This document shows, piece after piece, positions 3,988-22,388 of a DNA stretch of 26,087 nucleotides. The notes below the pieces were generated by a model that worked only from the letters and a program-made list of their open reading frames with translations, was not told the origin of the DNA and ran no database searches. Each line of letters starts with the position of its first letter. The stretch's first letter is position 1. Origin of the DNA: Candidatus Aerophobota bacterium (GTDB lineage: Bacteria > Aerophobota > Aerophobia > Aerophobales > JAGHCO01); contig JAGHCO010000136.1 of the NCBI GenBank assembly GCA_021160405.1, forward strand, positions 1-26,087. The letters run 5' to 3'. A program made the position numbers and the translations under genes.

Positions 3988-5436
3988 TTACTCTCTTTCC
4001 CATTTTATTTTTGGATTTCTATTTGCCTGTACCTCATCAAGTCTTAAAACAGGAGTTGTATGAGGAGCCTCCTTTACTAAGGAGGGATTCTCCTCTATTT
4101 CTTTTGCAATTTGCAAAAGAGTATTGATAAATACATCCAGAGTTTCCTTACTCTCTGTTTCGGTAGGCTCAATCATTAAAGCCTCCCCTACTATATGGGG
4201 GAAATAAATGGTAGGAGGATGTATTCCAAAGTCAAGAAGACGTTTGGCGATATCTAAAGTTCTTACTCCCTTTTCTCTTTTATTTTGAGCAGAAAGAACA
4301 CATTCATGCATACAGACTTCCTTGTAGGGAGAAGGGTAGTAATCTTCAAGTTTCTTCCTAATGTAATTAGCAGAAAGTATAGCATTTTCACTTACCTTTC
4401 TTAAACCCTCTTTGCCCAATATTCTTAAATAGCAGTAAGCTTTTATAACTACCCCAACATTGCCATAAAAAGATCTTACCTTTCCTATAGATTTGGGTCT
4501 TTGGTAGTTTAGCCAGTAACCATCCTCATTTTTTTCTATAGTGGGAATGGGCAAATATGGTTCAAGAGCTTTCTTTACTCCTACTGGTCCCGATCCAGGT
4601 CCTCCTCCTCCATGAGGGGTAGAAAAGGTCTTATGAAGATTAAAATGCATTATGTCAACCCCAAAATCCCCTGGTTTAGTTATACCCGTAAGGGCGTTAA
4701 GGTTAGCTCCATCAAGGTAAACAAAACCTCCTTTAGAATGAAGAATATTTGCTATATCAAGAATATTTTTTTCAAATAAACCCAGGGTATTGGGAACGGT
4801 AAGCATTATACAGGCTACTTTTTCATTTACATTTTTAGATAAATGCTTTAAATCCACCTCTCCCTCTGAATTAGACTTTATCTTTACCACTTTAAATCCT
4901 GCTAAAGAAGAGCTGGACGGGTTTGTTCCATGAGCAGAATCAGGAATAAGAATTTTATCCCTCTTTTCTTTTTTATCCTCAAAAAAGGCTTTAACCATTA
5001 ATATACTGGTGCGCTCACCATGGGCTCCTGCTGAAGGTTGAAGAGAGATTTTATCCATCCCTGATATTTTCTCTAACATCTTGCCAGTCTCATAAAGGAT
5101 GTGAAGGATTCCCTGAGTTGTGGATAAAGGCTGGTAAGGATGAAGCTCACAAAGGTGAGGAAGATTAGCTAAGGTTTCATTTATCTTAGGATTGTATTTC
5201 ATAGTGCAGGAACCTAAGGGATAAAAATTAGTATCTATACTCATATTTATTTGAGAAAGCCTGGTAAAATGGCGAACTAAATCAGGCTCGCTCACCTGAG
5301 GAAGACCTAACTCTTTCTTACGCAAGTTATTGGGAGGAATAAATTTTTTTATCTCTTCTTTCCTTAAACCAATCTCAGGCAAAGATACTGCAAATCTTCC
5401 CTTCCTGCTTTTCTCAAAGATTAAAGCTTCACTCAT
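3988..5436 (-). CDS. gcvPB: Glycine dehydrogenase (decarboxylating) subunit 2
   Basis: 482 aa. PLGSCTMKYNP, FNLHKTFSTPHGGGGPG (PLP lysine), EPTETESKETLD. Confidence 0.96.
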   Translation of the reverse strand: MSEALIFEKSRKGRFAVSLPEIGLRKEEIKKFIPPNNLRKKELGLPQVSEPDLVRHFTRLSQINMSIDTNFYPLGSCTMKYNPKINETLANLPHLCELHPYQPLSTTQGILHILYETGKMLEKISGMDKISLQPSAGAHGERTSILMVKAFFEDKKEKRDKILIPDSAHGTNPSSSSLAGFKVVKIKSNSEGEVDLKHLSKNVNEKVACIMLTVPNTLGLFEKNILDIANILHSKGGFVYLDGANLNALTGITKPGDFGVDIMHFNLHKTFSTPHGGGGPGSGPVGVKKALEPYLPIPTIEKNEDGYWLNYQRPKSIGKVRSFYGNVGVVIKAYCYLRILGKEGLRKVSENAILSANYIRKKLEDYYPSPYKEVCMHECVLSAQNKREKGVRTLDIAKRLLDFGIHPPTIYFPHIVGEALMIEPTETESKETLDVFINTLLQIAKEIEENPSLVKEAPHTTPVLRLDEVQANRNPKIKWERE

Positions 5437-6778
5437 TTACCTCTCCCAATAAAGAAATTAATTTATCCATTTCCTCCTTAGTTCTTTTTTCAGTGGTACA
5501 TAACAGAAGGTGGTTTTTAAGCTCAGGATAAAATCTTCCCAAATCCAGTCCTCCTAAAATTTTTTCTTCTAAAAGTTTTTGATTGATCTTTTTAGAAGAA
5601 ATAGGTGCTTTTACTACAAATTCTTTAAAAAAGGGAGCAGAAAAGGGAGATGAGTATCCGGGGAGCTTTTTTATTTTTTCTTTTAAATAATGGGAATTTT
5701 TTAAACAGAGCATCGCTACCTTTTTTAACCCTTCCTCTCCTAAGCAGGAAAGATAAATACAGGCTCTCAAAGCATTTAGATTTTGGTTGGTGCAAATATT
5801 GGAGGTAGCTTTTTCTCTTCTTATATGTTGTTCCCTGGTTTGAAGAATAAGAGTAAACCCTCTTTCTCCCCTTTTATCTTTAGCCTCTCCTACAATTCTT
5901 CCCGGCATTTGACGCAGGAATTCTTTGCGGGTAGTAAAAATTCCCAAACATTCTCCTCCCAGGTAGGGAGGACTGCCAAGAGCTTGTCCTTCTGCCACAG
6001 CAATGTCCGCATTGTACTGTCTGGGAGGGGATAAAAGGCCCAAAGATACGGGGTCGCAACTTACAATATAAAGGGAGCCGAATTTATGGACAATTTTTTC
6101 TATCTGGTTTGTTTTTTCCAGATATCCAAAAAAGTTGGGATTTTGAACAATAACACCTGCTATACTCTCATCTATTTCATCTTGTAGTAGGTTAAGATCC
6201 AGGGTTCCCTCAGAAGTGTAAGGTATTTGAATTAGCTTTATCCCTAAAGGTTTTGTGTAAGTTGAAAGGACCTGATAGTACTCTGGATGCAAGCTTTTAG
6301 CTACTAAAAATTTTTCTCTTTTTCTAATGCGATAGGCCATAAGAGCTGCCTCTGCCAGTGAAGTTGCTCCATCATACATAGAGGCATTGGATACATCCAT
6401 CTGGAAAAGATTACAAATGAGAGTTTGATACTCATAAATAGCCTGCAGGGTTCCTTGAGAAGCCTCAGCCTGATAGGGAGTGTAAGAGGTATAAAATTCT
6501 GAGCGAGAAGCTAAGTGCTCTACTACCGCAGGAACAAAATGATCGTATATACCTCCTCCCAAGAAGGAGATGCATTCCTCTAAGGAAGAGTTTTGTAAGG
6601 AAAGTCTTTTTACCTCTCTGGTAAGCTCCATTTCCGATATACCAGAGGGAAGATTCAAGGGAGAAGTGAGACGAATTTCCTTTGGAACAGTAATTAGCTC
6701 CTCTATTGATTTCACTCCTATTTCAGCTAACATTTGTTGTTGATCTTTTAAGGTATGAGGAATGTATGGTATATCCAT
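5429..6778 (-). CDS. gcvPA: Glycine dehydrogenase (decarboxylating) subunit 1
   Basis: 449 aa. FLGGGIYDH, EFYTSYTPYQAEASQG, HIRREKATSNICTNQ; 8-bp overlap with gcvPB. Confidence 0.96.
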   Translation of the reverse strand: MDIPYIPHTLKDQQQMLAEIGVKSIEELITVPKEIRLTSPLNLPSGISEMELTREVKRLSLQNSSLEECISFLGGGIYDHFVPAVVEHLASRSEFYTSYTPYQAEASQGTLQAIYEYQTLICNLFQMDVSNASMYDGATSLAEAALMAYRIRKREKFLVAKSLHPEYYQVLSTYTKPLGIKLIQIPYTSEGTLDLNLLQDEIDESIAGVIVQNPNFFGYLEKTNQIEKIVHKFGSLYIVSCDPVSLGLLSPPRQYNADIAVAEGQALGSPPYLGGECLGIFTTRKEFLRQMPGRIVGEAKDKRGERGFTLILQTREQHIRREKATSNICTNQNLNALRACIYLSCLGEEGLKKVAMLCLKNSHYLKEKIKKLPGYSSPFSAPFFKEFVVKAPISSKKINQKLLEEKILGGLDLGRFYPELKNHLLLCTTEKRTKEEMDKLISLLGEVNE

Positions 6779-6808
6779 TTTTCTCCTTTTGTTTTTTTGG
6801 CAAACCCA

Positions 6809-7917
6809 TTATCGTCTGCTTTCCTTTTTATATATCCTGGGAACTCTTTTGCCTATACCACATACAAAATAGTGCCTATCTTTGAAACAAGTTCATCTAC
6901 CGAAATTTGAGCATTCTCCTGCCTACCAAACAAACTACCTCATCGTCTACCCTTACATCTGGAATATGACTAACATCTACCAGATTCATATCCATACATA
7001 TCGTTCCCACTACAGGAGCTCTTTTTCCTTTAATAAGTACTTCTCCTTTATTGGATAGGGCTCTGGTGTATCCATCAGCATAGCCTACGGGAAAAGTGGC
7101 AATTATACTTTTTCCTTGGTAGTAAAAATTCTACCGTAGCTAAGACTTACTCCTGCAGGCACAGTTTTTAGATAAGCTACCTCAGTCTTAAATCTCATAA
7201 CAGGCTTAAGGTTAATGGTATGATTTACCTTAGTTGAAGGATATAGTCCATAAAGCATAATCCCTGGTCTTACCAGATCAAAATAAGAGGAATGAATGTT
7301 CAGAATTGCCGCACTGTTATCAGCATGCCTTATAGGGATGTGAATTCTCTCTTCTTCTAAATTAGCAATTACTTTTTTTAAACCTTTTGATCTGTAGTTC
7401 AGTAAAACTTTTATCTTTATCTGCTACCGAAAAATGAGTAAAAATACCTTCTATTTCAATACCTTTCAAGTGAGAAATTTCCTTAACAAAGTCTGTTATT
7501 TTCTCTGGGGTAACTCCCAATCGTCCCATCCCTGTATCTACCTTTATTGAACTTTGACAGTTTGACCCTGGGATTTAGCCTCAGCCGACAAGGCCTTAAC
7601 TAGCTCCATATTACAAACAGCCTGAGATAGCTTATATTTCACTACCTGTTGAACTTGTGCTGGTGGAGATAATCCGAAAACTAAAATTAGTGATTGAATT
7701 CCAGCCTTACGTAACTCCGCCGCTTCCTCAAGTGTAGCCACAGCTAAGCACTGAGCCCCATTTTTTAAGACGATTTTGGCTACCTCTACTGCTCCGTGCC
7801 ATAGCCGTTTGCTTTCACTACTGCCATTATCTTTACTTTATCACCGATTCTCTTGCGAATCTCACTGATATTATAGGTGATATTATCTAAATTAATTTCC
7901 GTCCTTGTAGGTCTCAT
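6809..7917 (-). pseudogene. alr: Alanine racemase pseudogene (about 6 frame-disrupting lesions)
   Basis: Manual translation across frames recovers MRPTRTEINL, MAVVKANGYG(H)GA, VATLEEA, (H)IKVDTGMGRLG, THFS, NSAA, VRPGIMLYG, SYG, VGYADGY, ICMDM, RVPRIY. Indels near 7799, 7547, 7376, 7111, 6933 and 6867. Confidence 0.93.
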
Positions 7918-7960
7918 TTCCCGCCCTTTAAATCCAGAATTTTTAACTTCTGAGGTATTC

Positions 7961-8635
7961 TTAGTACTTTTCAGCCAGCTTTGGATCATAGGGTGCTTTT
8001 CTTTCAATACAGCCTTTTCTGGGACAGAGTTGACAACTGTGAAATTTAATTTCAGTGGGGAAGTAAATTCCAGAGACAGACTTTTTAGGAATCATCAGGA
8101 AACTATTAGTTAAACTCACTCCTATGATTTTTTGACTGTCGCCAAAGATAGAGAATAACTCTTTTTGTTGAGTGATGGGCCAGTCTTCTAAAGAACCTGG
8201 ACTCATAGTGGAGATCTGTCCAAGTTTGTATTTTCTCTTGAGATGCGTTTCCAGATACCTCTGGATATGATCTAAAGCTAAATCCGCTATTCTCTCCAAA
8301 TAGTATTGCTTAAGTAAATCTTTCATTGAGGATGCCTTATCCTCTAATTTCTTTCCAACGGTAATAATGTAAGGAAAAACTCTTTCCAATTTATCCAGAT
8401 TTTTTCTAAGAACCTTGCTTTTAAATTGGACTTTCCCAATATCTAAGGTTATATCTGTTTTATTTTCTACAAAAGCTATCTTATAGACAGCTTTTGGGTT
8501 TATTAAATTAGCAGATAAATCGATAAGTTCTTTTATAAGTTCCCTTTGATTTGCTTGCATCTTATCATTTATCCTGAGATATTTAGATATCTCCTCAAAA
8601 CTAAATTTGATAGGGATGTTACTTAATACTTCCAT
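7961..8635 (-). CDS. Stand-alone B12-dependent methionine synthase activation (AdoMet-binding) domain-like protein
   Basis: 224 aa. FPYIITVG, SPGSLEDWPITQQKELF, IGVSLTNSFLMIPKKSVSGI resemble Met_synt_B12 stand-alone proteins; ends in CQLCPRKGC. Confidence 0.75.
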   Translation of the reverse strand: MEVLSNIPIKFSFEEISKYLRINDKMQANQRELIKELIDLSANLINPKAVYKIAFVENKTDITLDIGKVQFKSKVLRKNLDKLERVFPYIITVGKKLEDKASSMKDLLKQYYLERIADLALDHIQRYLETHLKRKYKLGQISTMSPGSLEDWPITQQKELFSIFGDSQKIIGVSLTNSFLMIPKKSVSGIYFPTEIKFHSCQLCPRKGCIERKAPYDPKLAEKY

Positions 8636-8665
8636 TCTGTTTTCCTTTTTTACACCTGAGCTGTT

Positions 8666-8820
8666 TTAGAGCATATTTTGAATGGTATAGATAATTTTTT
8701 TCTATTTTCCCTTGTTAGCTGAAGTAATTCTATATCTTTTCTTTGTCTTATTTTTTCCAAAAATTCATTTTCATAGATTGGTATAGTAGCTATGACTTTA
8801 TTTGGAGTATCAAGAACTTG
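8666..8820 (-). pseudogene. C-terminal remnant of a THEP1/NTPase_1-type nucleoside triphosphatase
   Basis: VLDTPNKVIATIPIYENEFLEKIRQRKDIELLQLTRENR resembles the THEP1 C-terminus as I recall it (VVATIP...KEIRR....LIELTPENR). No Walker A, own start or RBS is present. Confidence 0.65.
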
Positions 8821-8827
8821 TAAGTCC

Positions 8828-9223
8828 TTATTTTTCCTTTTCCTTTTTTGTCCATTCCTCATAATCCTCAGAGTCCATTAAGTTATTTAGCTCCTCTGGA
8901 TTTTGTAACTTTACTTTAATCATCCAACCTTTACCATAAGGGTCTTTGCTTATTAAATCTATTTGCTGAGACAGTTCCTCGTGAACCTCTACTACTTCAC
9001 CGCTTACAGGAGAGTTTAAATCGGAAACAGCTTTAACTGACTCTATAACACCAAAAGGGGAGCCTTGAGTTATTTTTTCTCCCACCGAGGGAAGTTCTAT
9101 ATATACAAGGTCAGTAAGCTGCTTTGCTGCAAAATCTGTAATTCCAACAGTGCCTACATCATTCTCAACTTTTATCCACTCATGAGTTTTGGTATACTTT
9201 AAGTCCTTAGGGTACATTTTCAT
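8828..9223 (-). CDS. gcvH: Glycine cleavage system H protein
   Basis: 131 aa. YTKTHEW, GITDFA, ESVKAVSD (lipoyl lysine), DPYGKGW; GGAGG RBS. Confidence 0.97.
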   Translation of the reverse strand: MKMYPKDLKYTKTHEWIKVENDVGTVGITDFAAKQLTDLVYIELPSVGEKITQGSPFGVIESVKAVSDLNSPVSGEVVEVHEELSQQIDLISKDPYGKGWMIKVKLQNPEELNNLMDSEDYEEWTKKEKEK

Positions 9224-9238
9224 AAACCTCCGGTAATT

Positions 9239-12200
9239 TTAAATATTTTCTTCAGGAAAACGAGACAGGACTACAGCTTCCTGAGGGAGAACTGTTCTAT
9301 CCCCTTCATTCAAGTTTCTTGCAGGCTTTTCTGAGAATCTTCCCCGAGGAAGAGGAAATATTGCAATCTCTTCACTTTCCTGAATCCTTTTATCAACATA
9401 AGCTAAGCCAACTTGAAAATCTTCTGCTAAAGTGCAACTGGTAACTTTTCCAACATATTTGCCTCTTTTATCTACTACAGGGTCATGCGGTCTTATCATC
9501 CTACCATAGCTTGATTTTAATTTAAACCTTATAATTTTCTTTTCCCTTCCTCTCTCTTTTTCCAATAAGATTTCTCTTCCAATAAAAAAGGGTTTATGAA
9601 ACTTAACAAAAGCTCCATAACCTGCTTCAATAGGGTCAATTTTGTACCTTCCGTCAAGTTCATGTCCATGTAAAGGAAGACCTGCCTCCACTCTGGTTGA
9701 ATCTCTTGCCCCCAGGCCACATGGTTTAACTTTAAATTCCCTACCTTTTTCCAAAATCAAGTTCCAGATGAATGGAGCATCCTTAGGATGAAGGTAAAGC
9801 TCATAGCCTATATCTTCCCCGGTATAACCTGTGCGAGAGATTATCATTTTTACTCCAGCAATCTCTCCTTCTATAAATTCATTCTTCTCCAGTCTTGCTA
9901 TCTCTTCTTGTAATTTTTTATTTTCTGCTAATTTTTGCAAGATTAAAACTGATTTAGGTCCCTGAAGAGCTATATCTACTTTTTGTTCCTCTCCCGTTGA
10001 TTCATCTTTTAAATTTTTAATATTTACCGCGCTTGCAATTTCTCTTGGTGGATAACTTTTATCTATAATATAGCGTTTAGAATTAACTGCCTTTAACCAG
10101 CTTAATACTTTTTCCTGATTGGCGGCATTATCAACAATCATATATCTTTGCTTTCCGCGGCAATAAATCATAATATCATCTATTACATTGCCATCAGGGT
10201 CAAGGAGGAAGCTATACTGAGATTGTCCAATCTTTATCCATCGAACATAGTTGGTAGTAACGACATCTAAAAAGTCGGCGGCATTTTCTCCACTAACTTC
10301 CAAAATTCCCATATGACTTACATCAAAGAGCCCTGCCGCCTCTCTCACTGCTCTGTGTTCTTCAGAGATACTTTTATAATAAATGGGCATTTCCCATCCA
10401 GCAAACTGAGTGAATTTTGCTCCCAATTTTAAATGTTCCTCGTATAAAAAAGATCTTTTAGTTTTTTTCTCTTTCTCCTGATAGTGAAACTCCTCTTTTT
10501 TTACCTCTAGGGGTATATTATTTTGACTAAATAGTTTTTGTCCGATAAAATAAGGTTTGGATAGGTCAAAATAAGAGAGAAAATTTTTATACAAAGATAA
10601 ACCATCAATTTTACCTCTCTCTTCAGAGGAAATTTTTTCCTTTAAATGAACATGCTCTCCCCTTTTAATATCAGCCAGATTAACTTTTAAGGTTTCACTT
10701 AACTTTTGTAAAGTTTCCTCTTTCGTTTCTGTTAAATCTTCCACCACCACTGGCCCCTGAATTTTAGCAAATATATCATCGGGATCAAAAATAATATACC
10801 CATCTGATAAACCTTCCAGCCAAAGCTTTACCCTCTGAGTTTGAGACAGGGTAGTTGCAACTAAATAACGATCTTTTCCTTTATTATCAGGAGGGAGATG
10901 AACAATTAAAACATCATCAATAAGCTTCCCTTCAGCGTCTAAGAAAAAAGAGGAAGCAAACTCACCTGGCTTAAGATTAGCTATATTAGCAGTAGATAAT
11001 TCTTGCAGGAAAGGCTTTGCTCTTTCTCCACTTACTTTTAGGACTCCTATATTGCTCTCTTCCCTGTTTGATTCTTGTTTAAGTAAATCAGGCTCTTTTT
11101 GAGAAAAGGCAAATTTTGGTATTTCAGCTTCTTTTTTCTGGATTAGCTCTGTTACCTCTTTTCTTACCTCCTCAATTATATCAAGGTTTATCTTCCCCCT
11201 TGGTAGATCTCCCGTTAATCCTTCATAAATAAAGGGGTGAATGTTAGTTATAACCCTGTGAATAAGCTCTGCTATTTTCTCCATTTCCTCTTTTCCAAAT
11301 CCTCGCTGAGTAGCCCAGGGAGTTCCCAATCTAATAGCACTTGCCTCAGCAGCAGTTTCATCTCCAGGGATAGTATTTTTGTTAACTACCAGGCCACAAA
11401 GATCCAAAATGCGGGCAGCCATTTCTCCTTTTAAAGGAAAGCCGGTTTTTGTTTTAATAGCATTTAAATCAACCAATAAAAGGTGAGTATCAGTTCCTCC
11501 ATAAGCTATTTTCAGCCCCTTTTTTTCTAATGATGAGGCTAATACTTTAGCATTTTCAACTATTTTTTCCTGGAGTTTTTTAAACTCCTCTGTCCCGGCA
11601 ATTTTAAATGTAGTTGCTATAGCTGCAATTGTATTGATGTGAGGACCTCCCTGTTCCCCGGGAAAAACAGCCTCATCTATTAGTTTAGCTTTTTCTCTAT
11701 CGGTAGTTAAGATAACTGCTCCGCGAGGACCACAGAGGGTTTTGTGAGTGGTAAAAGTTATAACATCAGCAAAGCCGACTGGACTTGGATATATCCCAGC
11801 AACTACCATTCCTGCAACATGGGCAATATCAGCAAATAAAAGCGCCCCTACACTATCAGCAACTTCTCTAAACTTTCCCCAATCAACACTCCAGGGGTAA
11901 GCACTGTAACCTGCAATTATTATCTTGGGTTTGTATTGATAGGCAAGGTTTTTAATAGCATCATAGTTAAGTTTCCCACTTGTTAGATCAGCCTCATAGG
12001 GGATGACCTTGTAGTATTTGCCAGAACGGTTAAATTCACTCCCGTGGGTAAGATGTCCTCCATAAGATAGGGACATACCCATAATTGTATCACCTGGTTT
12101 AATAAAAGCCGCATAAACAGCATTATTTGCTGCCGCCCCTGATAAAGGTTGGACATTAACAAAAATTTTATCGGCACTCACCTTATCTGTGGCAAAACAC

Positions 12201-12592
12201 TTAGCTATTCTTCTTTGAGCCAGCGATTCAACAAAATCAGCGAACTCAACTCCTTTGTAAAAACGTCTATCAGAGTAGCGTCTATAGTTGGCAAGCTGAT
12301 AGTTATAATCAAGCAACACTTTTTCATCATTTTCTTCACTCATTCTTGGGGAAGGATATCCTTCAGCATAGAGGTTGCTAAAAGGTGATGATAAAGCTTC
12401 TCGAACAGGTTTTGGGCAGATACTCTCCGAAGGTATAAGAATAATTTTTTGTATCTGCCGAGCTTTCTCAAAATCAATAATAAGGCTTATGTCGGGGTCT
12501 ACTTTAGAAAGTTCCGCCTCAAGATAATATGAATAATCTCTCCCCTTACCCTTAAATTTTTCCTTTGATAAAAGACCTTTTTTTTCTTCCAT
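9239..12592 (-). CDS. glyA-gcvT: Fusion of serine hydroxymethyltransferase (about aa 25-485), a partial GcvT folate-binding domain (about aa 513-620) and a full GcvT aminomethyltransferase (about aa 710-1117)
   Basis: SHMT motifs: YAEGYP, NVQP, GGHLTHG, TTHKTL, GGTDTHL, IRLGTP. GcvT motifs: EHRAVR, GLFDVSHMG, SRTGYTGE, GLGARD, EAGLPLHG. One uninterrupted ORF. Confidence 0.93.
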   Translation of the reverse strand: MEEKKGLLSKEKFKGKGRDYSYYLEAELSKVDPDISLIIDFEKARQIQKIILIPSESICPKPVREALSSPFSNLYAEGYPSPRMSEENDEKVLLDYNYQLANYRRYSDRRFYKGVEFADFVESLAQRRIAKCFATDKVSADKIFVNVQPLSGAAANNAVYAAFIKPGDTIMGMSLSYGGHLTHGSEFNRSGKYYKVIPYEADLTSGKLNYDAIKNLAYQYKPKIIIAGYSAYPWSVDWGKFREVADSVGALLFADIAHVAGMVVAGIYPSPVGFADVITFTTHKTLCGPRGAVILTTDREKAKLIDEAVFPGEQGGPHINTIAAIATTFKIAGTEEFKKLQEKIVENAKVLASSLEKKGLKIAYGGTDTHLLLVDLNAIKTKTGFPLKGEMAARILDLCGLVVNKNTIPGDETAAEASAIRLGTPWATQRGFGKEEMEKIAELIHRVITNIHPFIYEGLTGDLPRGKINLDIIEEVRKEVTELIQKKEAEIPKFAFSQKEPDLLKQESNREESNIGVLKVSGERAKPFLQELSTANIANLKPGEFASSFFLDAEGKLIDDVLIVHLPPDNKGKDRYLVATTLSQTQRVKLWLEGLSDGYIIFDPDDIFAKIQGPVVVEDLTETKEETLQKLSETLKVNLADIKRGEHVHLKEKISSEERGKIDGLSLYKNFLSYFDLSKPYFIGQKLFSQNNIPLEVKKEEFHYQEKEKKTKRSFLYEEHLKLGAKFTQFAGWEMPIYYKSISEEHRAVREAAGLFDVSHMGILEVSGENAADFLDVVTTNYVRWIKIGQSQYSFLLDPDGNVIDDIMIYCRGKQRYMIVDNAANQEKVLSWLKAVNSKRYIIDKSYPPREIASAVNIKNLKDESTGEEQKVDIALQGPKSVLILQKLAENKKLQEEIARLEKNEFIEGEIAGVKMIISRTGYTGEDIGYELYLHPKDAPFIWNLILEKGREFKVKPCGLGARDSTRVEAGLPLHGHELDGRYKIDPIEAGYGAFVKFHKPFFIGREILLEKERGREKKIIRFKLKSSYGRMIRPHDPVVDKRGKYVGKVTSCTLAEDFQVGLAYVDKRIQESEEIAIFPLPRGRFSEKPARNLNEGDRTVLPQEAVVLSRFPEENI

Positions 12593-13779
12593 TATTTTTC
12601 AACTGCTTTTTTAATTCTTTTCAGACCCTCTAATATACCTTTTTTAGAGGTTGCGTAGGATAATCTTATGTATTCCTCTTTTTCTCCTTCGTTTCTACAC
12701 CCAAAGCAGCTCCTGCTTAGCACTGCCACATCTGCCTCATAAAGAAGGTATTTTTGAAGTTCTTTGGAGCCTTTGAGATTAAGATTTTGGCAAACCTCAG
12801 TCACATTAGGGTATATATAAAAAGCCCCCTTTGGTTTAATGCATCTTATTCCTTTAATTTCATTTAATCCTTCCCAGATAATCTCTCGTCTTTCTTTAAA
12901 CTCCTTTACCATAGATAAAGAAGAATCCTGTGGACCTTCCAGAGCTTCAACTCCTGCATATTGAATAAAGGTATTTGTGCAGGAGTTAATATTAGTCTGG
13001 ATTCTGGTAATATCTTGCGCTAAATCTTTCCTCATTACTCCAAATCCTAACCTCCAGCCAGTCATAGCATAGGTTTTTGAAAAACCATCTATTAAAATTG
13101 TTCTTTCTTTCATCCCTGGAATAGATGCTATGCTTTTAAATTCTGTATCATAAATAATTTGAGAATAAACCTCATCTGATACAATCCAGATATTTTTTTC
13201 CTTAGATATTTCGGCAATCATCTTTAGATCATCTTGGGTTAAGATACCTCCTGTAGGATTTTGGGGAGAGTTAATAATTATCATTTTTGTTTTGTCAGTT
13301 ATCTTTGCCTCTAATTGCTCGGGGTCAAAACTAAATTCTTTTTCTTCTAAAAGAGGAAGAGGAACAGGTTTTGCTCCAACAAAGTTTATGAACGATTCAT
13401 AAATTGGGAAACCCGGATTTGGATATATTACCTCATCTCCTTCATTAACACAGGCGAGAATACCATAGGCAATAATTGGTTTTGCTCCTGGGGTAATTAC
13501 CACCTCTTCAGGGTCTACTTCTATACCTCTGGTTTTAGAAATATACCGGGCAACTGATTCTCTTAAGGAAGGAACACCAGATGAGGGAGAGTAATGAGTA
13601 TACCCATCTTTAATTGCCTTTACTCCTGCATCTTTAATGTTTTGCGGTGTATCAAAATCAGGTTCTCCAATGGCAAAGCTTATAATATCTTTTCCTTCTG
13701 CTTTTAGTTTGTTCACCTCTGCCAAAACTTCAAAGGCAGTTTCAGTTCCTAACCTCTTCATCCTTTTTGCTTTTTCCAT
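12592..13779 (-). CDS. PLP-dependent class I/II aminotransferase (aspartate aminotransferase-like)
   Basis: 395 aa. IGEPDF, NSPQNPTG, SDEVY, GFSKTYAMTGWRLG (PLP lysine); TAATG coupling to the glyA-gcvT start. Confidence 0.92.
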   Translation of the reverse strand: MEKAKRMKRLGTETAFEVLAEVNKLKAEGKDIISFAIGEPDFDTPQNIKDAGVKAIKDGYTHYSPSSGVPSLRESVARYISKTRGIEVDPEEVVITPGAKPIIAYGILACVNEGDEVIYPNPGFPIYESFINFVGAKPVPLPLLEEKEFSFDPEQLEAKITDKTKMIIINSPQNPTGGILTQDDLKMIAEISKEKNIWIVSDEVYSQIIYDTEFKSIASIPGMKERTILIDGFSKTYAMTGWRLGFGVMRKDLAQDITRIQTNINSCTNTFIQYAGVEALEGPQDSSLSMVKEFKERREIIWEGLNEIKGIRCIKPKGAFYIYPNVTEVCQNLNLKGSKELQKYLLYEADVAVLSRSCFGCRNEGEKEEYIRLSYATSKKGILEGLKRIKKAVEK

Positions 13780-13794
13780 ATTTTACCTTCTTTC

Positions 13795-13812
13795 ATACCA
13801 AAGATATATTAA
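13795..13812 (+). promoter_or_regulatory. Candidate operator ATACCAA-N4-ATATTAA, copy 1
   Basis: ataccaaagatatattaa lies between the predicted -10 and the aminotransferase start; 14/18 identical to the copy at 14542-14559. Confidence 0.45.
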
Positions 13813-13822
13813 AGATATTTAA

Positions 13823-13851
13823 TTTATATCACATAAAAAAAATTTTGTCAA
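13823..13851 (-). promoter_or_regulatory. Putative sigma70 promoter for the aminotransferase-glyA/gcvT-gcv operon
   Basis: On the - strand: TTGACA (13851-13846), 17 nt, TATAAA (13828-13823), with a TGn extension. Confidence 0.55.
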
Positions 13852-13875
13852 GATGTAAATCAAAATCTTTATTAT

Positions 13876-14487
13876 TTATAACTGAGCTTTTATTTTCTCT
13901 ATAAAGAATTCAGCGTGGGCAGCTAATATGTTAGCAGATGAATCCTTATCTTTTTTTTCAATGGCAGAAATTAACCTCTGAAAGTCCTCTCTGAAGGTAT
14001 ACACGAAGGATTTGTCCTTTGGCAAAATCCACAATCTTAAAACTCTATCTCTTAGGGCTTGTAAAATACCGTAAAGCACTTGATTATGAGTTGCCATATT
14101 TATTAAATCGTGGAATTTAGAATCTAATTTTATTAATTCTTTCTCATCCAAATTGTCTTTGAACTTATTAAGAAGGTTTTTCATTTTCTCTATTTCATCT
14201 TTTGTTGCTCTTTCGGCTGCTAATTTACCAGCTATCTTTATAAGAGGTCTTCGCAGTTCCATCACATCAATAAGTTCTTTAAATTCAACAGAGCTAACAT
14301 GAACTCCACTATAGGGGACTATCTCAACTAAGCCTTCAGCATCAAGACGAACCAAAAGTTCTCTTAAAGGGGTTCTTCCTATGTTAAATTCCTTCATTAG
14401 CTCTTTTTCCTTTAATACCTGGCCTGGTTTGTAATCACCTAATACTATTTTCTCCCTTAAAATAGAGTAAACGCTGTTTTTATCCAA
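13876..14487 (-). CDS. GntR-family (FadR/FCD) transcriptional regulator
   Basis: 203 aa, TTG start after GGGAGG. wHTH segment (KELMKEFNIGRTPLRELLVRLDAEGLV); FCD-like LDSKFHDLI...NQVL...AH. Confidence 0.9.
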   Translation of the reverse strand: MDKNSVYSILREKIVLGDYKPGQVLKEKELMKEFNIGRTPLRELLVRLDAEGLVEIVPYSGVHVSSVEFKELIDVMELRRPLIKIAGKLAAERATKDEIEKMKNLLNKFKDNLDEKELIKLDSKFHDLINMATHNQVLYGILQALRDRVLRLWILPKDKSFVYTFREDFQRLISAIEKKDKDSSANILAAHAEFFIEKIKAQL

Positions 14488-14533
14488 ATTATTTCCTCCC
14501 TATAGTTTGTTAAAGGCAAGACTTATATATCTC

Positions 14534-14562
14534 TTGCCAAGTTAATATCCACTTGGTATAAT
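14534..14562 (+). promoter_or_regulatory. Putative strong sigma70 promoter for the transketolase
   Basis: TTGCCA (14534-14539), 17 nt, TATAAT (14557-14562), with an extended -10 TGn. Confidence 0.6.
14542..14559 (-). promoter_or_regulatory. Candidate operator ATACCAA-N4-ATATTAA, copy 2
   Basis: Reads ataccaagtggatattaa on the - strand; overlaps the spacer and -10 of the transketolase promoter. Confidence 0.45.
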
Positions 14563-14563
14563 A

Positions 14564-14592
14564 TTAATATATTATTAATGTATTTTTGTCAA
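14564..14592 (-). promoter_or_regulatory. Possible promoter for gntR
   Basis: TTGACA (14592-14587 on -) followed by an AT-rich -10 region; the exact hexamer is ambiguous. Confidence 0.35.
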
Positions 14593-14597
14593 AGTCT

Positions 14598-14632
14598 GTC
14601 CTCTCATCGGAAAAGAGGACTTTATCTTTTTT
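14598..14632 (+). terminator. Hairpin plus T-rich tract in the transketolase leader (possible attenuator)
   Basis: gtcctct-catcggaaa-agaggac followed by tttatctttttt. Confidence 0.3.
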
Positions 14633-14671
14633 CTGAGAGTAAGTTTAAGAAGGGGAAAAGGAGGTTTATAA

Positions 14672-16705
14672 ATGCCCATTATAGATTCTAAGACAGGAAA
14701 AGTAAGAAGGAATTATACAGTTGAGGAGTTAGTAGAAAAGGCAAGAGAGATGAGAGCATACAGTATGGTTGCTCTTACTGCAGCTTCCTCAGGGCATACT
14801 GGTGGAACCATGTCAATTATGGATATTGCTGCAGCCCTTTACCTCAAAAAGATAAGACATGACCCAAAGAATCCTGAGTGGGAAGACAGAGATAGAGTTT
14901 TTTGGTCTACAGGTCATAAAGCTCCTGCCCTTTATGTAGCTTTGGGTGAGGCAGGTTATTTCCCAATAGAAGAGATAGTAAAGTTAAGGAAGCTGTGGTC
15001 TGGTTTTGAAGGTCACCCTAATAGATTAAAGCTACCAGGGGTTGAGCTTTCTGCTGGGTCCTTGGGACAAGGTTTAGGCGTAGCAGTAGGCTGTGCACTT
15101 AATGCTAAGTTAGAGGGGAAAAGTTACAGAGTTTACTGTATCAATGGGGATGGGGAGCTTGATGAGGGTTCTATTTGGGAGTCTATAATGTGCGCTGCTC
15201 ATTATAGATTAGATAATCTTGTATCTATTGTTGATAGAAATAATTTGCAAATTGATGGTCCTACAGAAAAAGTGATGAGGTTGGAATCTATTGTTAATAA
15301 ATGGAGAGCTTTTGGATGGAACACTATTGAAATTGATGGTCATAATATAAGTGAGATTCTAAACGCTTTAGATGAAGCTGAGAAGGTAAAAGGAAAACCA
15401 ACAGTGATAATCGCTAAAACAACTAAAGGAAAAGGTGTCTCCTATGCTGAGAATGTAGTTGGTTACCATGGCATTCCTCCAAAGGATGGAAGGTCAGGAA
15501 AAGAATCGTTAGATAAGGCTCTGGGAGATATAGGCGATCCTAAATTTACTAAAGAGAAGATAGATAAACTTCTAAAAATTGCCAATGATTATCAAAGAGA
15601 AGTTGATAAAAAGATAGATGCTTCTTTGCCTAAGTTTAGTAGAAATTACTGGTGGAATTCAACTGATAAGATGAAGGTTAAGATGGATGCTACCAGAAAT
15701 GGCTTTGGTAGGGCTATAGAAAAATTGGGTGATGATAAAAGAGTTGTTGCTTTGGGAGCTGATATTACAAATTCAATAAGAATGAATAAGTTCTATGCTA
15801 ATCATCCCGAGAGAAAAAATAGATTTTTTAGTATAGGTATAGCTGAGGCTAATATGACTTTGGTAGCATCTGGTTTAGCTAAGGAGGAAAAAATACCATT
15901 TATTGGCTCTTATGGGGTCTTTATAACTGGTAGAAATTGGGACCAGTTAAGAACTACTGTATGTTACAATAACTTTAATGTAAAGATTGCCGATGCTCAC
16001 GGTGGTATCTCAGTTGGAAAGGATGGAGCTACCCATCAGGCACTGGAGGAAATAACTAACATGTGTTATCTACCCAATATGCGTATGGCTATCCCCTGTG
16101 ATTCAGTTGAAACAGAAAAGGCAACTAAGGCAATAGCCTCTATTGATGGGCCTTGTGTAGTTAGGTATGCAAGGGAGGCAACTCCCATAGTAACCACCAA
16201 TAATACTCCCTATAAGTTTGGTTTAGCAAACATAATAAGGTATAGAGGTGAGAGGGAGAATTTTATAGAAGCATTTGAGATAAAGCTTTCCACTGACTAT
16301 ACCTCAGAAAACGAGGATTTAAGTATAATTTCCTGTGGACCTATGGTCCCAGAGGCGATGAGGGCGGCTTATATTTTAAGAGAAGAGTTTGGAATCGAGG
16401 CAAGAATACTAAATGTGCATACAGTTAAACCAATTGATAAGGAGGCAATTGTAAGAGCAGCGCAGGAAACAGGTATTATAATCACAGCGGAAGAGCATCA
16501 GGTTGGTGGTTTTGGAAATATTGTAGCAGGAGTGATAGCAAAGGGTAAAAGATACACTTCACCATTGCTGATGGATATGGTTGGGGTAGAGGATAAATTT
16601 GGTGAATCTGGAGCACCATGGGAGTTAATGAAAGCATTTGGTCTAACTGCTGAGCACATTGCAAAAAGGGCTAAAGAGTTGTGGGATAAGAAAAGTGATG
16701 CGTGA
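14672..16705 (+). CDS. tkt: Transketolase-family enzyme with N-terminal TPP-binding and C-terminal subunits in one chain
   Basis: 677 aa. SGHTGG, DRVFWSTGHKAP, FEGHP, GSLGQG, GDGELDEG...N TPP motif, GIAEANM, DGATHQALEE, EEHQVGG; AGGAGG RBS. Confidence 0.88.
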   Translation: MPIIDSKTGKVRRNYTVEELVEKAREMRAYSMVALTAASSGHTGGTMSIMDIAAALYLKKIRHDPKNPEWEDRDRVFWSTGHKAPALYVALGEAGYFPIEEIVKLRKLWSGFEGHPNRLKLPGVELSAGSLGQGLGVAVGCALNAKLEGKSYRVYCINGDGELDEGSIWESIMCAAHYRLDNLVSIVDRNNLQIDGPTEKVMRLESIVNKWRAFGWNTIEIDGHNISEILNALDEAEKVKGKPTVIIAKTTKGKGVSYAENVVGYHGIPPKDGRSGKESLDKALGDIGDPKFTKEKIDKLLKIANDYQREVDKKIDASLPKFSRNYWWNSTDKMKVKMDATRNGFGRAIEKLGDDKRVVALGADITNSIRMNKFYANHPERKNRFFSIGIAEANMTLVASGLAKEEKIPFIGSYGVFITGRNWDQLRTTVCYNNFNVKIADAHGGISVGKDGATHQALEEITNMCYLPNMRMAIPCDSVETEKATKAIASIDGPCVVRYAREATPIVTTNNTPYKFGLANIIRYRGERENFIEAFEIKLSTDYTSENEDLSIISCGPMVPEAMRAAYILREEFGIEARILNVHTVKPIDKEAIVRAAQETGIIITAEEHQVGGFGNIVAGVIAKGKRYTSPLLMDMVGVEDKFGESGAPWELMKAFGLTAEHIAKRAKELWDKKSDA

Positions 16706-16900: not shown

Positions 16901-18253
16901 CTATACCTGAGTATCCAACGGTATTTTAGCTACAATTTTAGCCATAGCTGGATTTCTCTTGCATTCTATGGCAAATTCCTCCTCCCGCATCTTATTTCTA
17001 TAACCAGGCTCTTCAAAGGAATACTTAAATTTGGTATGGACATCGTATCTTCCCTCAAGAATGGCTACTGCATCCTCTACAAAAACTATCTCCTCATCAG
17101 TGGGGATGACAAATATCTTTGTCCTGGAATCCTCTGAGGAGATATCTACTTCAGCATTTCTTGTTCTGGCCAGAGCATTTTTTTCCTGGTCATACTTAAT
17201 TCCCAAAATCTCAAGCCCGTTTAAGATCTTCGCTCGGATTGGACTGGATAATTCTCCTACTCCTGCAGTGAAGATAAGGGCATCAACTTCTCCTAAAGCA
17301 GCTGCATAAGCACCGATATACTTCTTAAGCCTATAAGTTTCAATTTCTATAGCAAGTTGAGCTCTTTTTTCACCATTTTCTGCTGCCTTGAGTACATCTC
17401 TTCTATCTGTGTACTTACCGGTTATTCCTAAGATGCCGCTTTTTTTGTTGAGAATATTGTCCATTTCCTCTGTAGTATAACCTTTTTTCCTCATCATAAA
17501 AAGATCAATTGCTGCATCATGATCACCTGCCCGAGTGCCCATAACTGCTCCCTCCAAGGGTGTAAATCCCATGCTTGTATCTAAAGAAACTCCGTTCTTT
17601 ACTGCATTTATGCTAACGCCATTGCCAATGTGACAACTTATCAGATTACATTCAAAGGGATCTTTACCAAGCAAAACAGCTGCTCTTTTCGCTACATATA
17701 ATAGAGAAGTTCCATGGAAACCGTATCTCCTTACGCCGTATTCCTCATACCATTCGTAAGGCAAGGCGTAAATGTAAGCATAAGAAGGCATTGTTTGATG
17801 CCAGGCTGTGTCAAAGACAGCCACCTGGGGAATATTGGGCAGCAGTGATTTTGCTGCCTCTATTCCTGCGATATTAGGTGGATTATGGAGAGGAGCGAGG
17901 GAGGCAACTTCCTTAATCATATCCAAAACTTTCTCATTGATAAGAACGGATTTAGTGAACTTTTCTCCTCCGTGCACTACCCGGTGCGACACCACCTTAA
18001 TTTCTTTGAGGTCCCCCATCACTTCCTTCCCTGAATTCATCAAAGTATCAATGATAAGCTTAATAGCTATTTTATGATTTGGGCATTCATGGTTAAGGCG
18101 AAGAGGGTCTCTTCCTGGTACCTCTTGGATGATAAAAGATCCTCCTATTGTAACTCTTTCTACTATTCCCCTAGCCTTGATTTTCCTATCATCCCAATCG
18201 TAGAGTAAATATTTAACCGAGGAACTGCCACAATTCAAGGATAAGATAAGCAT
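16901..18253 (-). CDS. ackA: Acetate kinase
   Basis: 450 aa. NCGSSS, HRVVHGG, PLHNP, GFHGTS, HIGNG, FTAGVGE, PTDEE; C-terminal extension. Confidence 0.96.
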   Translation of the reverse strand: MLILSLNCGSSSVKYLLYDWDDRKIKARGIVERVTIGGSFIIQEVPGRDPLRLNHECPNHKIAIKLIIDTLMNSGKEVMGDLKEIKVVSHRVVHGGEKFTKSVLINEKVLDMIKEVASLAPLHNPPNIAGIEAAKSLLPNIPQVAVFDTAWHQTMPSYAYIYALPYEWYEEYGVRRYGFHGTSLLYVAKRAAVLLGKDPFECNLISCHIGNGVSINAVKNGVSLDTSMGFTPLEGAVMGTRAGDHDAAIDLFMMRKKGYTTEEMDNILNKKSGILGITGKYTDRRDVLKAAENGEKRAQLAIEIETYRLKKYIGAYAAALGEVDALIFTAGVGELSSPIRAKILNGLEILGIKYDQEKNALARTRNAEVDISSEDSRTKIFVIPTDEEIVFVEDAVAILEGRYDVHTKFKYSFEEPGYRNKMREEEFAIECKRNPAMAKIVAKIPLDTQV

Positions 18254-18263
18254 TAGTTTCTCC

Positions 18264-19283
18264 TTAAAGTTTTACCGCTTGCTCTTCCAATATTTGTGAT
18301 TGGACTGCAGTTATGGCTATTACTCCTACAATATCCTGAACACTACATCCCCTCGAAAGATCGTTTACCTGTTTAGTGAGCCCTTGAACAAGAGGCCCGT
18401 AGGCCTGAGCCCTGGCTAATCTTTGGGTTAACTTATAAGCGATGTTACCGCAATTTAAATCGGGGAAGATTAAGACATTTGCCCTACCCGCCACAGAACT
18501 TCCTGGAGCTTTTCTTGCTGCTATAGAGGGCACTAATGCAGCATCGCCTTGCAGTTCACCATCAATTAACAGATCCGGCCTTCTTCGCTGAGCAATAGAT
18601 GTTGCCTCAACAACCTTGTCCACTGTGGAGTTCTTACCACTACCTTTGGTGGAAAAGGAAAGCATAGCCACTCTTGGCTCAATGCCGATTAAGCTTTTTG
18701 CTGTTTCAGCAGAGACAATAGCAATTTCAGCTAATTGTTCAGCATTTGGATTAGTTACCATCCCACTATCGGCAAAGATGAAAAGTCCCTTTTCGCCATA
18801 AGGACAATCAGGAACAACCATCACAAAATAAGCAGATACTGTCTTGATATTCCTCATTCTTTTAAAAACCTGTAATGGTGGTCTTAAAGTCCAACTGGTG
18901 TGATGAGCTGCTCCTGAAACTGCACCATCGGCATCGCCTAAATAGACCATCATAGTGGCATAATACATTGGATCTTTTAAAATCTTTGTAGATTCATCCA
19001 AACTTACGCCCTTTTTCTTGCGTAGTTCATAAAATTTTTGGGCGTAAAGTTCTCTCTTCTCAGAAGTAAGGGGATTAACAATCAGGATTCCATCAATATT
19101 AACCCCCTCTTTTTTAGCTACCGAGAGAATCTCATCCTTATCTCCTAAAAGGATTATCCTGGCAATGTTTTCCTTTAATATAACTTCTGCTGCCCTTAAA
19201 ATTCTTTTCTCTCTTCCCTCTGGTAGGACAATAACCTTTGAAGTTTTCCTTGCCTGTTCTTTAATTTTTTCTATGAACTCCAT
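18264..19283 (-). CDS. pta: Phosphate acetyltransferase (short form)
   Basis: 339 aa. VLPEG, AMLSFSTKGS, DGELQGDAA, FPDLNCGNIAYKL, DLSRGCS. Confidence 0.95.
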   Translation of the reverse strand: MEFIEKIKEQARKTSKVIVLPEGREKRILRAAEVILKENIARIILLGDKDEILSVAKKEGVNIDGILIVNPLTSEKRELYAQKFYELRKKKGVSLDESTKILKDPMYYATMMVYLGDADGAVSGAAHHTSWTLRPPLQVFKRMRNIKTVSAYFVMVVPDCPYGEKGLFIFADSGMVTNPNAEQLAEIAIVSAETAKSLIGIEPRVAMLSFSTKGSGKNSTVDKVVEATSIAQRRRPDLLIDGELQGDAALVPSIAARKAPGSSVAGRANVLIFPDLNCGNIAYKLTQRLARAQAYGPLVQGLTKQVNDLSRGCSVQDIVGVIAITAVQSQILEEQAVKL

Positions 19284-19301
19284 ATCTTTTTCCCCTTAGG
19301 A

Positions 19302-20231
19302 TTAAGCATTCTCTCCAGCTAAGGCTAACAGCTTTTTTTCCTTTTCCTCTATATTTTTTTGCAGTTCTTCAACTACTTTCTTGTTTTCCTCCTTAAGAAG
19401 ATGTCTGAATCTGCCCTGAGATTCTAACCAATCCTTTAAAGGTTTTTTCTTTCTCGGTTTATAAGTGATTCTGTACTTACCATTCTCAATCTCATATAAG
19501 GGCCAGAATCCTGAAAGAACAGCTAATTTAGCTATTTCAATGGTTTGATCAGCAGGATATCTCCACCCTCTGGGACAGGGGGAAAGAATATTAATGAAAG
19601 AGGGACCATTTGCACTTAAGGCTTTTTGAACTTTTTTCATTAAATCATTGTAATAACCAGGAGAAGCTTGAGCAACATAGGGAATATTGTGAGCAGCAAC
19701 AATTTGAGTTAAGTCTTTTCTATATTCAGTTTTACCTTCAGGAATAGCTTTACCTGCTGGAGATGTAGTAGTAGAAGCTCCCCGGGGACTAGCACTGGAG
19801 CGCTGTATGCCCGTATTCATATAAGCCTCGTTGTCATAGCAGATATACAGAAATCTATGACCTCTTTCTAAGGCTCCTGAGAGAGCTTGAATCCCAATAT
19901 CATAGGTTCCCCCATCTCCTCCAAAGGCAATAAATCTTATTTCTTTGTCTATCTTTCCCTGTCTTTTCAATGAGCGATAAGCAGCCTCAACTCCAGAAAT
20001 AGTAGATGCTGCATTTTCAAAGGCATTATGAATCCAGGGTACCTTCCAGGCAGTGTAAGGATAAATGGTGGTTCCTACTTCTAAACATCCTGTAGAACAA
20101 CAAATTACCACTGGGGTATCCACTGCTAAAAGAACCTGTCTTACAATAATAGGTGCCCCACACCCGGGACAAAGTCGGTGACCATTTGAAAAAAGTTCTT
20201 CTTTTTTAGATAAATCTTTAAGAGACGGCAT
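19302..20231 (-). CDS. porB: Pyruvate:ferredoxin oxidoreductase beta subunit
   Basis: GHRLCPGCG, GGDGGTYDIG (TPP), DNEAYMNTGIQRS, SPCPRGW. Confidence 0.93.
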   Translation of the reverse strand: MPSLKDLSKKEELFSNGHRLCPGCGAPIIVRQVLLAVDTPVVICCSTGCLEVGTTIYPYTAWKVPWIHNAFENAASTISGVEAAYRSLKRQGKIDKEIRFIAFGGDGGTYDIGIQALSGALERGHRFLYICYDNEAYMNTGIQRSSASPRGASTTTSPAGKAIPEGKTEYRKDLTQIVAAHNIPYVAQASPGYYNDLMKKVQKALSANGPSFINILSPCPRGWRYPADQTIEIAKLAVLSGFWPLYEIENGKYRITYKPRKKKPLKDWLESQGRFRHLLKEENKKVVEELQKNIEEKEKKLLALAGENA

Positions 20232-20243
20232 TTTTTTCTCCTG

Positions 20244-21425: not shown

Positions 21426-21426
21426 T

Positions 21427-21735
21427 TTATTTTTCTCCTTCTTTTTCAGCTTTATACTTAGCCTCTTCTATCATCTCAATTGCTTTGAATGGGCATTCAG
21501 TAGAACATATTCCGCATCCCTTACAATAATCATACCTAAAACCTTTCATTTTCCCATCTTCCACTATAATAGAGCTATCGGGGCAATATATCCAACATAT
21601 AAGGCAATGCTTACACTTTTTCTCATCTAAAACTGGACGAAAGGTTCTCCAACTCCCTGTTAAGTATTCCTTAGCACTTCCTGCCTCTAAAATAAGACCT
21701 CCCAAAGGAACATCTTTCCAACCCTTCTCTTTCAT
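21427..21735 (-). CDS. porD: Pyruvate:ferredoxin oxidoreductase delta subunit (2x[4Fe-4S])
   Basis: TGSWRTFRP, CKHCLICWIYCP, CKGCGICSTECP. Confidence 0.93.
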   Translation of the reverse strand: MKEKGWKDVPLGGLILEAGSAKEYLTGSWRTFRPVLDEKKCKHCLICWIYCPDSSIIVEDGKMKGFRYDYCKGCGICSTECPFKAIEMIEEAKYKAEKEGEK

Positions 21736-22304: not shown

Positions 22305-22349
22305 TAAAAGCCTCCCTTCATGCACTAATTTTCTTGCAAAATTTATGCT

Positions 22350-22377
22350 ATTCTATCTGAAATTATTGGATTGTCAA
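22350..22377 (-). promoter_or_regulatory. Putative sigma70 promoter for porCDAB-pta-ackA
   Basis: On the - strand: TTGACA (22377-22372), 16 nt, TAGAAT (22355-22350). Confidence 0.55.
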
Positions 22378-22388
22378 ATTTTAAATTT

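Follow-up and report, generated by a model that had tools for sequence, protein, structure and literature searches.

The window analysed here, a 26,087-nt contig of Candidatus Aerophobota bacterium (GenBank assembly GCA_021160405.1, contig JAGHCO010000136.1), carries on its reverse strand a gene in which serine hydroxymethyltransferase (SHMT) and GcvT, the T-protein of the glycine cleavage system (GCS), are joined in one polypeptide with an additional GcvT-like piece between them. In the product, P0001, SHMT, the middle GcvT-like piece, and GcvT occupy residues 28–485, 513–690, and 713–1113 of a 1117-aa chain, and the start codon overlaps the stop codon of an upstream aminotransferase gene by one base (TAATG). 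The gene and its parts are as follows.

9239–12592, reverse strand: whole fused gene (P0001, 1117 aa), one open frame of 1117 codons.
11138–12511, reverse strand: SHMT domain, residues 28–485; NF000586 at 441 bits (cut-off 335), template modelling (TM) score 0.94–0.95 to 1kkj.
12269–12352, reverse strand: insertion of ~27 aa in the SHMT domain, residues 81–108, between the active-site motifs YAEGYP and RRFYKG, interrupting the Pfam match.
11057–11137, reverse strand: linker 1, residues 486–512; 41–43% pairwise identity, predicted local distance difference test (pLDDT) <50.
10709–11056, reverse strand: core of the middle pseudo-T domain, residues 513–628, equal to GCV_T profile positions 46–160; 61–72% pairwise identity.
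10733–10822, reverse strand: most conserved motif of the middle domain, residues 591–620 (W..LSDGY..FD..D.F.K..GP.VV.DL).
10607–10708, reverse strand: linker 2, residues 629–662, a variable filler in place of the RTGYTGE...GARD half of T-protein domain 1 (~100 aa) found in long homologues.
10523–10606, reverse strand: tail of the middle domain, residues 663–690 (DGLSLY...SKPYFIGQ), the last GCV_T strand.
9611–10447, reverse strand: complete folate-binding domain of the T-protein, residues 716–994; Pfam GCV_T at 270 bits alone.
9359–9541, reverse strand: probable C-terminal barrel of the T-protein, residues 1018–1078; weak GCV_T_C match.

The first-pass annotation of the window, made from the letters alone, had described a single-chain SHMT-GcvT'-GcvT fusion with an internal duplication, and the Pfam domains, BLASTP, and the open frame agree with that description. 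Continuity across the junctions, which the annotation had named beforehand as one of the points on which it could fail, holds in the colinear loci, in the frames of relatives, and in Logan contigs. Both linkers of P0001 are in frame and free of stops. The order SHMT-middle-GcvT on one strand was found in all 80 loci fetched, which come from independent assemblies; the matches of relatives sit in single open frames of about 1050–1260 aa, and more than 120 database clusters of 1090–1280 residues contain both SHMT and GCV_T. Logan contigs from four public runs (hydrothermal-vent and marine-sediment metagenomes) covered the fusion region piecewise at a depth of 3–8, each run having gaps and no one record spanning the gene, and showed neither joints nor indels at either junction. 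A long frame of this kind could arise as an assembly or frameshift artefact that merges separate glyA and gcvT genes: the source assembly is a fragmented metagenome-assembled genome (MAG) of 262 contigs and 72% completeness, certain database homologues are split or partial, and one seeming split, a 566-aa protein at locus L086, was traced to a run of N and rejected as a real split. However, the identical single frame across hundreds of independently assembled genomes, the stop-free linkers, and the contigs of four runs that cross both junctions render such an artefact extremely improbable.

The SHMT domain matched PF00464 at 415 bits (cut-off 27) in two stretches, residues 28–84 and 106–444. 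In an alignment of 117 homologues, the pyridoxal phosphate lysine (K284 in the motif T-T-H-K-T) was invariant, as were Y75 and E77 (YAEGYP), Y112 (RRFYKG), H180, D255, H258, the carboxylate-binding R421, and the folate-site residues N404/N406; F111 (RRFYKG) was present in at least 90% of the sequences. For comparison, the active site of E. coli SHMT consists of Y55, E57, Y65, H126, D200, H203, K229, N347, and R363. Superposition on 1kkj and 2w7d (TM score by target, 0.94–0.95; root mean square deviation [rmsd], 2.7; 42% identity) placed the domain among fold-type I SHMTs. Judged by these residues, the fused SHMT domain is intact and predicted to be competent. It resembles GlyA (EC 2.1.2.1; G. 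stearothermophilus 1KKJ, E. coli 1DFO) in fold, in ~42% identity, and in all checked active-site residues, but differs in having 27 extra residues inserted between its YAEGYP and RYYGG-type motifs, and in the ~630 residues appended to it. The same genome encodes a second, ordinary glyA of 430 codons on another contig, from which the insertion is absent.

The C-terminal copy of GcvT passed the equivalog model TIGR00528 (303.5 bits; cut-off 235.85) and NF001567 (354.2 bits; cut-off 300). PF08669 (GCV_T_C) scored 20.4–22.1 bits, under its cut-off of 25.9; the whole-length GcvT models aligned as far as residues 1073–1077, and the AlphaFold2 model placed strands over residues 1018–1109 with a pLDDT of about 85–90. 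The T-domain residues were mapped by counting along the HMMER alignment to T. maritima 1WOO, whose Y83, D96, Y100, N112, Y188, E195, and R227 are the folate-binding and catalytic set. The corresponding residues Y793, D806, Y810, N822, Y923, E931, and R963 were each present in 117 of 117 homologues, and the C-terminal T-protein domain is likewise intact and predicted to be competent. In passing the equivalog models with its last 410 residues, in all seven folate-binding and catalytic residues, in what appear to be all three domains, and in the position of its gene ahead of gcvH-gcvPA-gcvPB, it resembles stand-alone GcvT/AMT (EC 2.1.2.10; T. maritima 1WOO, B. subtilis 1YX2, E. coli 3A8I). Unlike these enzymes, it sits behind SHMT and a degenerate copy of its own domains 1 and 2. 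Both copies within the fusion also carry a ~19-aa insertion after the W-L-K helix, whereas the T. maritima enzyme has none.

Between these two enzymes, residues 513–628 gave a second GCV_T match (48.6 bits, E 8e-13, cut-off 25.6) that covers only positions 46–160 of the 255 in the profile. BLASTP of residues 490–715 against residues 700–1117 yielded 29% identity over 163 columns (E 2e-16), an alignment that takes in both motif pairs quoted in the first-pass annotation and, towards the domain end, a third such pair (KPYFIGQ in the middle copy, KPFFIGRE in the C-terminal copy). The comparison indicates that the duplication of the middle and C-terminal copies is real, well above chance. Its origin is more readily seen in the homologues, which fall into two length classes. 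In the long class (about 1220–1250 aa), the middle region aligns to residues 2–243 of solved T-proteins, that is, to full domains 1 and 2 with no C-terminal barrel; domain 3 is missing from the middle copy in every homologue. In a long form, the middle region matches its own C-terminal copy best (203 bits, 37% identity, 306 columns, nearly gapless through a shared lineage-specific insertion after the W-L-K/R helix, vs a phmmer-scale 110 bits for the top-scoring solved GcvT). This points to an intragenic tandem duplication in which domains 1 and 2 of the T-protein were copied, the middle piece being what is left of one copy after degeneration.

P0001 belongs to the short class. Its middle region lacks the first ~45 residues and also ~100 residues of the RTGYTGE...GARD half, in whose place stands poorly conserved filler. 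In a tree built with the middle columns left out, the short clade of the window (11 rows, support 100) stood beside the long-form Aerophobetes clade, and a second short group was nested within Anaerolineae-type sequences. The long/short label required at least 5–6 changes on the tree, an approximately unbiased (AU) test rejected a single short clade (log-likelihood difference 419.5, p-AU 1.4e-57), and the leftover fillers of the two short groups were unlike. Since the short forms do not make up one clade and their fillers differ, the same half of the duplicate has been lost repeatedly, and the phylogeny points to deletion on more than one occasion as the source of the short form. That the short form represents repeated secondary reduction is newly shown here. 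The 'extra partial GcvT copy' of the earlier description is accordingly upheld as a real duplicate and revised as to its nature: it is the remnant of complete domains 1 and 2, trimmed independently in several lineages, instead of a purpose-built relay.

The residues of the middle copy have changed in a manner consistent with this history. The position of Tyr83 was Ser in 113 of 117 homologues and that of Tyr100 was Leu in 100 of 117 (Val in P0001); the position of the catalytic Asp96 held Asp in 71, Ser in 26, Glu in 14, and His in 4 sequences (Asp in P0001), and that of Asn112 held Asn in 102 of 117 (Thr in P0001). The His of the SHMG motif is gone from the middle copy, and the half with Y188, E195, and R227 has been deleted from that of P0001. 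On this evidence, the middle copy is a putative reduced pseudo-enzyme that is no longer catalytic. Its sequence has nonetheless been kept: pairwise identity was 61–72% in the core (residues 513–628) and 58–81% in the tail (residues 663–690) vs 60–83% in the catalytic domains and 31–53% in the three linkers, which suggests purifying selection on the middle domain, with a core conserved like the catalytic domains. Within the motif of residues 591–620, W591, D597, Y599, F602, D603, and P614 were invariant, and L595, D606, K610, G613, V616, V617, and L620 were nearly so. In the tail, L667, Y681, and G684 were invariant in the 117-sequence alignment, and K679 was invariant in an alignment of 44 sequences and present in at least 90% of the larger one.

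Folded alone, the middle region reached a pLDDT of 79.5 and matched T-proteins, sarcosine oxidase alpha, YgfZ, and IBA57 with fold Z scores of 13.5–15.4 over ~160 residues (14.9 to E. coli T-protein; 15.4 to SoxA and YgfZ). The expectation that this segment would model as a GcvT-family fold was therefore borne out. YgfZ (1NRK) and IBA57 (6QE3) were matched as well as true T-proteins (Z 14.7–15.4), and the aminomethyltransferase residues missing from YgfZ, IBA57, and the TrmE N-terminal domain are missing from the middle domain too. Unlike YgfZ and IBA57, the middle domain is a recent intragenic duplicate of GcvT that lies outside those families and has been shortened. The likeness to the N-terminal domain of TrmE/MnmE (1XZQ) was weak, with Z scores of only 6.4–6.6 and PF10396 (TrmE_N) matches of 24.5 and 17.2 bits, under the cut-off of 29.8.

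The middle domain might be functional in itself, as a second folate site that relays tetrahydrofolate (THF) or methylene-THF, as a dock for H-protein, or as an allosteric site. Its retained GcvT-family fold, the purifying selection, the presence of Asp559 (T. maritima position 95) in 113 of 117 homologues, and the matches to the non-catalytic fold relatives YgfZ, IBA57, and TrmE N-domain, all of which bind folate, are in keeping with such a role. Against it stand the replacement of Y83 by Ser and of Y100 by Leu, the variable D96, the lost SHMG His, TrmE_N scores that stay under the cut-off (17–24.5 vs 29.8 bits), and the independent loss, more than once, of both the Y188/E195/R227 half and the N-terminal ~45 residues that P0001 lacks. 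The N-terminal region of T-protein is required for H-protein binding, as in the E. coli T-H complex. Because key residues have been lost and half of the domain has been repeatedly deleted, the folate relay or canonical H-protein dock suggested in the first-pass annotation is unlikely for the short form, which has lost the N-terminal region and, by replacement or deletion, the canonical folate-binding and catalytic residues. A function of the middle domain in its own right is, on balance, quite unlikely.

To place the middle domain in the whole chain, we examined the full-length AlphaFold2 model, which had a mean pLDDT of 84 and a predicted TM score (pTM) of 0.82; outside linker 1, the N-terminus, and a pair of short loops, no part fell below a pLDDT of 50. 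Among models in the AlphaFold database, the homologue A0A7C5APS2 superposed on the whole chain with a TM score of 0.83, and homologue models gave TM scores of 0.84 (by hit) for SHMT plus the middle core and 0.94 (rmsd 2.5) for the middle domain plus T-protein. The block containing the 598–615 loop had a pLDDT of about 59 in the isolated domain vs about 88–90 in the full-length model. Because the pLDDT of this block rises in the full-length context, the 591–620 loop is likely an inter-domain contact, and the middle domain is likely packed on its neighbours in the predicted structure.

A structural adaptor is the most plausible role for the middle domain. It would act as a rigid spacer that packs on both neighbours via the 591–620 loop and fixes their geometry. 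SHMT dimerises, which would give a dimeric particle bearing two T-wings. A further step is tentative: in such a rigid dimeric machine, the dead T-copy might set the cavity of the T-protein against the folate site of SHMT, so that methylene-THF is handed over inside the protein. Methylene-THF readily releases formaldehyde when hot. If this arrangement is true, anaerobes of vents and sediments would have a natural, covalent means of channelling folate, and engineered glycine/serine one-carbon (C1) pathways would gain a ready part. In this family, a duplicated enzyme domain also appears to have degenerated into a module that is conserved for its structure, losing the same half repeatedly.

The distribution of the fusion was examined in a scan with one genome per species. 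The middle domain was encoded in 228 species genomes and the fusion in at least 228; the best 80 of the 228 fusion bearers were all MAGs. In the phylum of the window, 20 of 31 species genomes carried the fusion, which is the sole GCV_T in the window's own genome, and five fusion-less members, three of them >90% complete, had no GCV_T at all. The scan thereby indicates that the fusion is the only T-protein of the phylum, a result newly shown here. In one Anaerolineae-side order, the fusion was present in 31 of 31 genomes, and further bearers had labels that include Acetothermia and Spirochaetota. Uncultured Aerophobetes and Anaerolineae are the typical hosts of the fusion. Within the Anaerolineae-side order, roughly half of the genomes encode two paralogues of the whole fusion; in the genome of L074, two copies lie on one contig (G031:C201:3176–4873 and 12515–14284). 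Three Thermoflexus sp. proteins (P0221–P0223, 561–586 aa) begin exactly at the middle core and continue through the T-protein with no SHMT, and may be either an SHMT-less variant or truncated gene calls; tblastn of plasmids with a Thermoflexus protein found only ordinary gcvT genes.

Databases label these proteins just 'GcvT' or 'glycine hydroxymethyltransferase', so that the fusions go unremarked there, in line with the statement in the first-pass annotation that similar fusions occur in annotations of some anaerobes. A full-text literature search returned nothing on an SHMT-GcvT fusion, nor any biochemical characterisation of one, and the annotation had known of none. The parts are ordinary GlyA and GcvT; their combination with a conserved pseudo-T domain is undescribed in the literature found. 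With such single-function names, one of the two activities may be scored wrongly when the metabolism of Aerophobetes, Anaerolineae, and Acetothermia is reconstructed.

Next, we considered the genomic context of the fusion, which fills the usual gcvT slot in the order aminotransferase-[fusion]-gcvH-...-gcvPA-gcvPB. The neighbouring genes are as follows.

3988–5436, reverse strand: gcvPB.
5429–6778, reverse strand: gcvPA.
8828–9223, reverse strand: gcvH, 15 nt downstream of the fusion and preceded by GGAGG.
12592–13779, reverse strand: class I/II aminotransferase, upstream and translationally coupled, kept beside the fusion in Aerophobetes.
13876–14487, reverse strand: GntR/FCD regulator that heads the operon, at the position taken by the glycine riboswitch in sister lineages.
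14672–16705, forward strand: transketolase, full-length and divergent here.

The genes gcvH, gcvPA, and gcvPB adjoin the fusion in about 27 of the 80 loci; among the rest, many end before any neighbour would be seen. Glycine riboswitch aptamers lie directly upstream of the aminotransferase-fusion operon at loci L013, L029, L032, and L057, and their bearers are long-form Aerophobetes and one Anaerolineae locus. Glycine riboswitches ahead of gcvT operons switch on with glycine. In the window, no glycine riboswitch was found at the gathering threshold or at E values up to 1; its closest relatives in the short-form clade (L007 and L010) are also without one and have a GntR/FCD gene at that place. 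The RNA sensor thus appears to have been swapped for a protein regulator in the short-form clade (13780–14671 in the window).

Transketolase and the class I/II aminotransferase accompany the fusion throughout Aerophobetes. The order in the long-form loci L013, L029, and L032 is glycine riboswitch-aminotransferase-fusion-transketolase-gcvH-gcvPA-gcvPB. As a speculation, the association with transketolase may hint at a route from glycine via serine to hydroxypyruvate, a usable ketol donor. The ~2 kb between gcvH and gcvPA (6779–8827) hold a 224-aa open reading frame with a weak match to the MetH activation domain (29 bits), and ~1.1 kb of this gap (6809–7917) is without a long open reading frame. 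Because gcvPA directly follows gcvH in the close relative L006, the gap is presumably a local insertion. Upstream of the fusion and on the same strand, positions 16901–24257 encode an amino-acid permease fused to the EIIA component of the phosphotransferase system, a four-subunit 2-oxoacid:ferredoxin oxidoreductase, phosphotransacetylase (Pta), and acetate kinase (AckA), an amino-acid-to-acetate, ATP-yielding set beside the glycine module.

Taken together, the reading that we favour, with a probability of about 0.6, is that P0001 is a bifunctional T-protein and SHMT with a dead adaptor between them, which couples glycine cleavage to serine synthesis while folate cycles locally. The T-domain would take the aminomethyl group from lipoyl-H-protein to yield 5,10-methylene-THF and ammonia, and SHMT, ~200 residues upstream on the chain, would condense this methylene-THF with another glycine, forming serine and releasing THF. 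The net reaction would be 2 Gly + NAD+ -> Ser + CO2 + NH4+ + NADH, with expression that may track glycine supply through the riboswitch in sister lineages and the GntR/FCD regulator here. The direction 2 Gly -> Ser is favoured because it is the only one that passes folate between the fused sites, and it fits the glycine control of the sister operons. The proposed net chemistry (2 Gly -> Ser + CO2 + NH3 + NADH) is that of the coupling between glycine decarboxylase and SHMT in plant mitochondria during photorespiration, in which methylene-THF passes from T-protein to SHMT; unlike these separate proteins, the fusion joins the enzymes covalently. Whether glycine decarboxylase and SHMT exchange methylene-THF directly is a long-standing topic for plant mitochondria, and the same question arises in the design of synthetic reductive-glycine and serine-cycle pathways. 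A covalent T-protein/SHMT join that serves as the sole T-protein across a phylum offers a direct experimental handle on this step.

Several points weigh against this coupling of cleavage to synthesis. Channelling is something that we purely infer, and the contacts of the middle domain derive from the pTM, pLDDT shifts, and superposition scores of predictions. The second, canonical glyA in the genome means that the fused SHMT is not needed for bulk interconversion of serine and glycine, and complete relatives encode FolD and formate-THF ligase (Fhs), so that methylene-THF has other exits and sources and the loop is not closed. The window itself lacks a riboswitch at either threshold searched, and the fusion may merely secure stoichiometry or co-expression.

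The first-pass annotation had left the direction of C1 flow between 2 Gly -> Ser and reductive glycine synthesis. The first of these is favoured by the sister riboswitches, whereas the reductive direction gains nothing obvious from the fusion. In a reductive glycine pathway, formate or CO2 would supply methylene-THF, the reversed GCS would form glycine, and the fused SHMT would add a second C1 unit to give serine. GCS and SHMT are both reversible; moreover, the fusion-bearing relatives that are >90% complete encode FolD (5 of 5) and formate-THF ligase (4 of 5), neighbours on one contig in four, and lipoamide dehydrogenase (Lpd) was found in 25 of 31 genomes of the phylum. Such gene content does not by itself fix which way the flux runs. 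Nevertheless, T-protein and SHMT would both consume methylene-THF in that direction, so that nothing is passed from one fused site to the other; glycine riboswitches head the sister operons; the permease, 2-oxoacid:ferredoxin oxidoreductase, Pta, and AckA of the window look fermentative; and the 72%-complete genome of the window yielded neither CdhC nor AcsB. We consider service in a reductive pathway unlikely, and the oxidative coupling of glycine cleavage to serine synthesis remains the reading that we prefer.

Searches of the window's 72%-complete genome gave no match for Fhs, FolD, Lpd, CdhC, or Fe-S serine dehydratase. The absence of FolD, Fhs, and Lpd is presumably due to this incompleteness, and a closed THF loop deduced from missing FolD and Fhs was dropped, as complete fusion-bearing relatives have FolD, Fhs, and Lpd. 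A connection with glycine reductase (Ser -> 2 Gly -> acetyl-P -> AckA) was also considered; none of the 31 genomes of the phylum gave a GRDB match, but neither did the control genomes, so that this counts as weak evidence of absence. At the far end of the window, positions 24498–25712 on the reverse strand encode a protein of 404 aa that is unrelated to the glycine module and combines a Schlafen AlbA_2 domain with an HATPase_c_4 domain.

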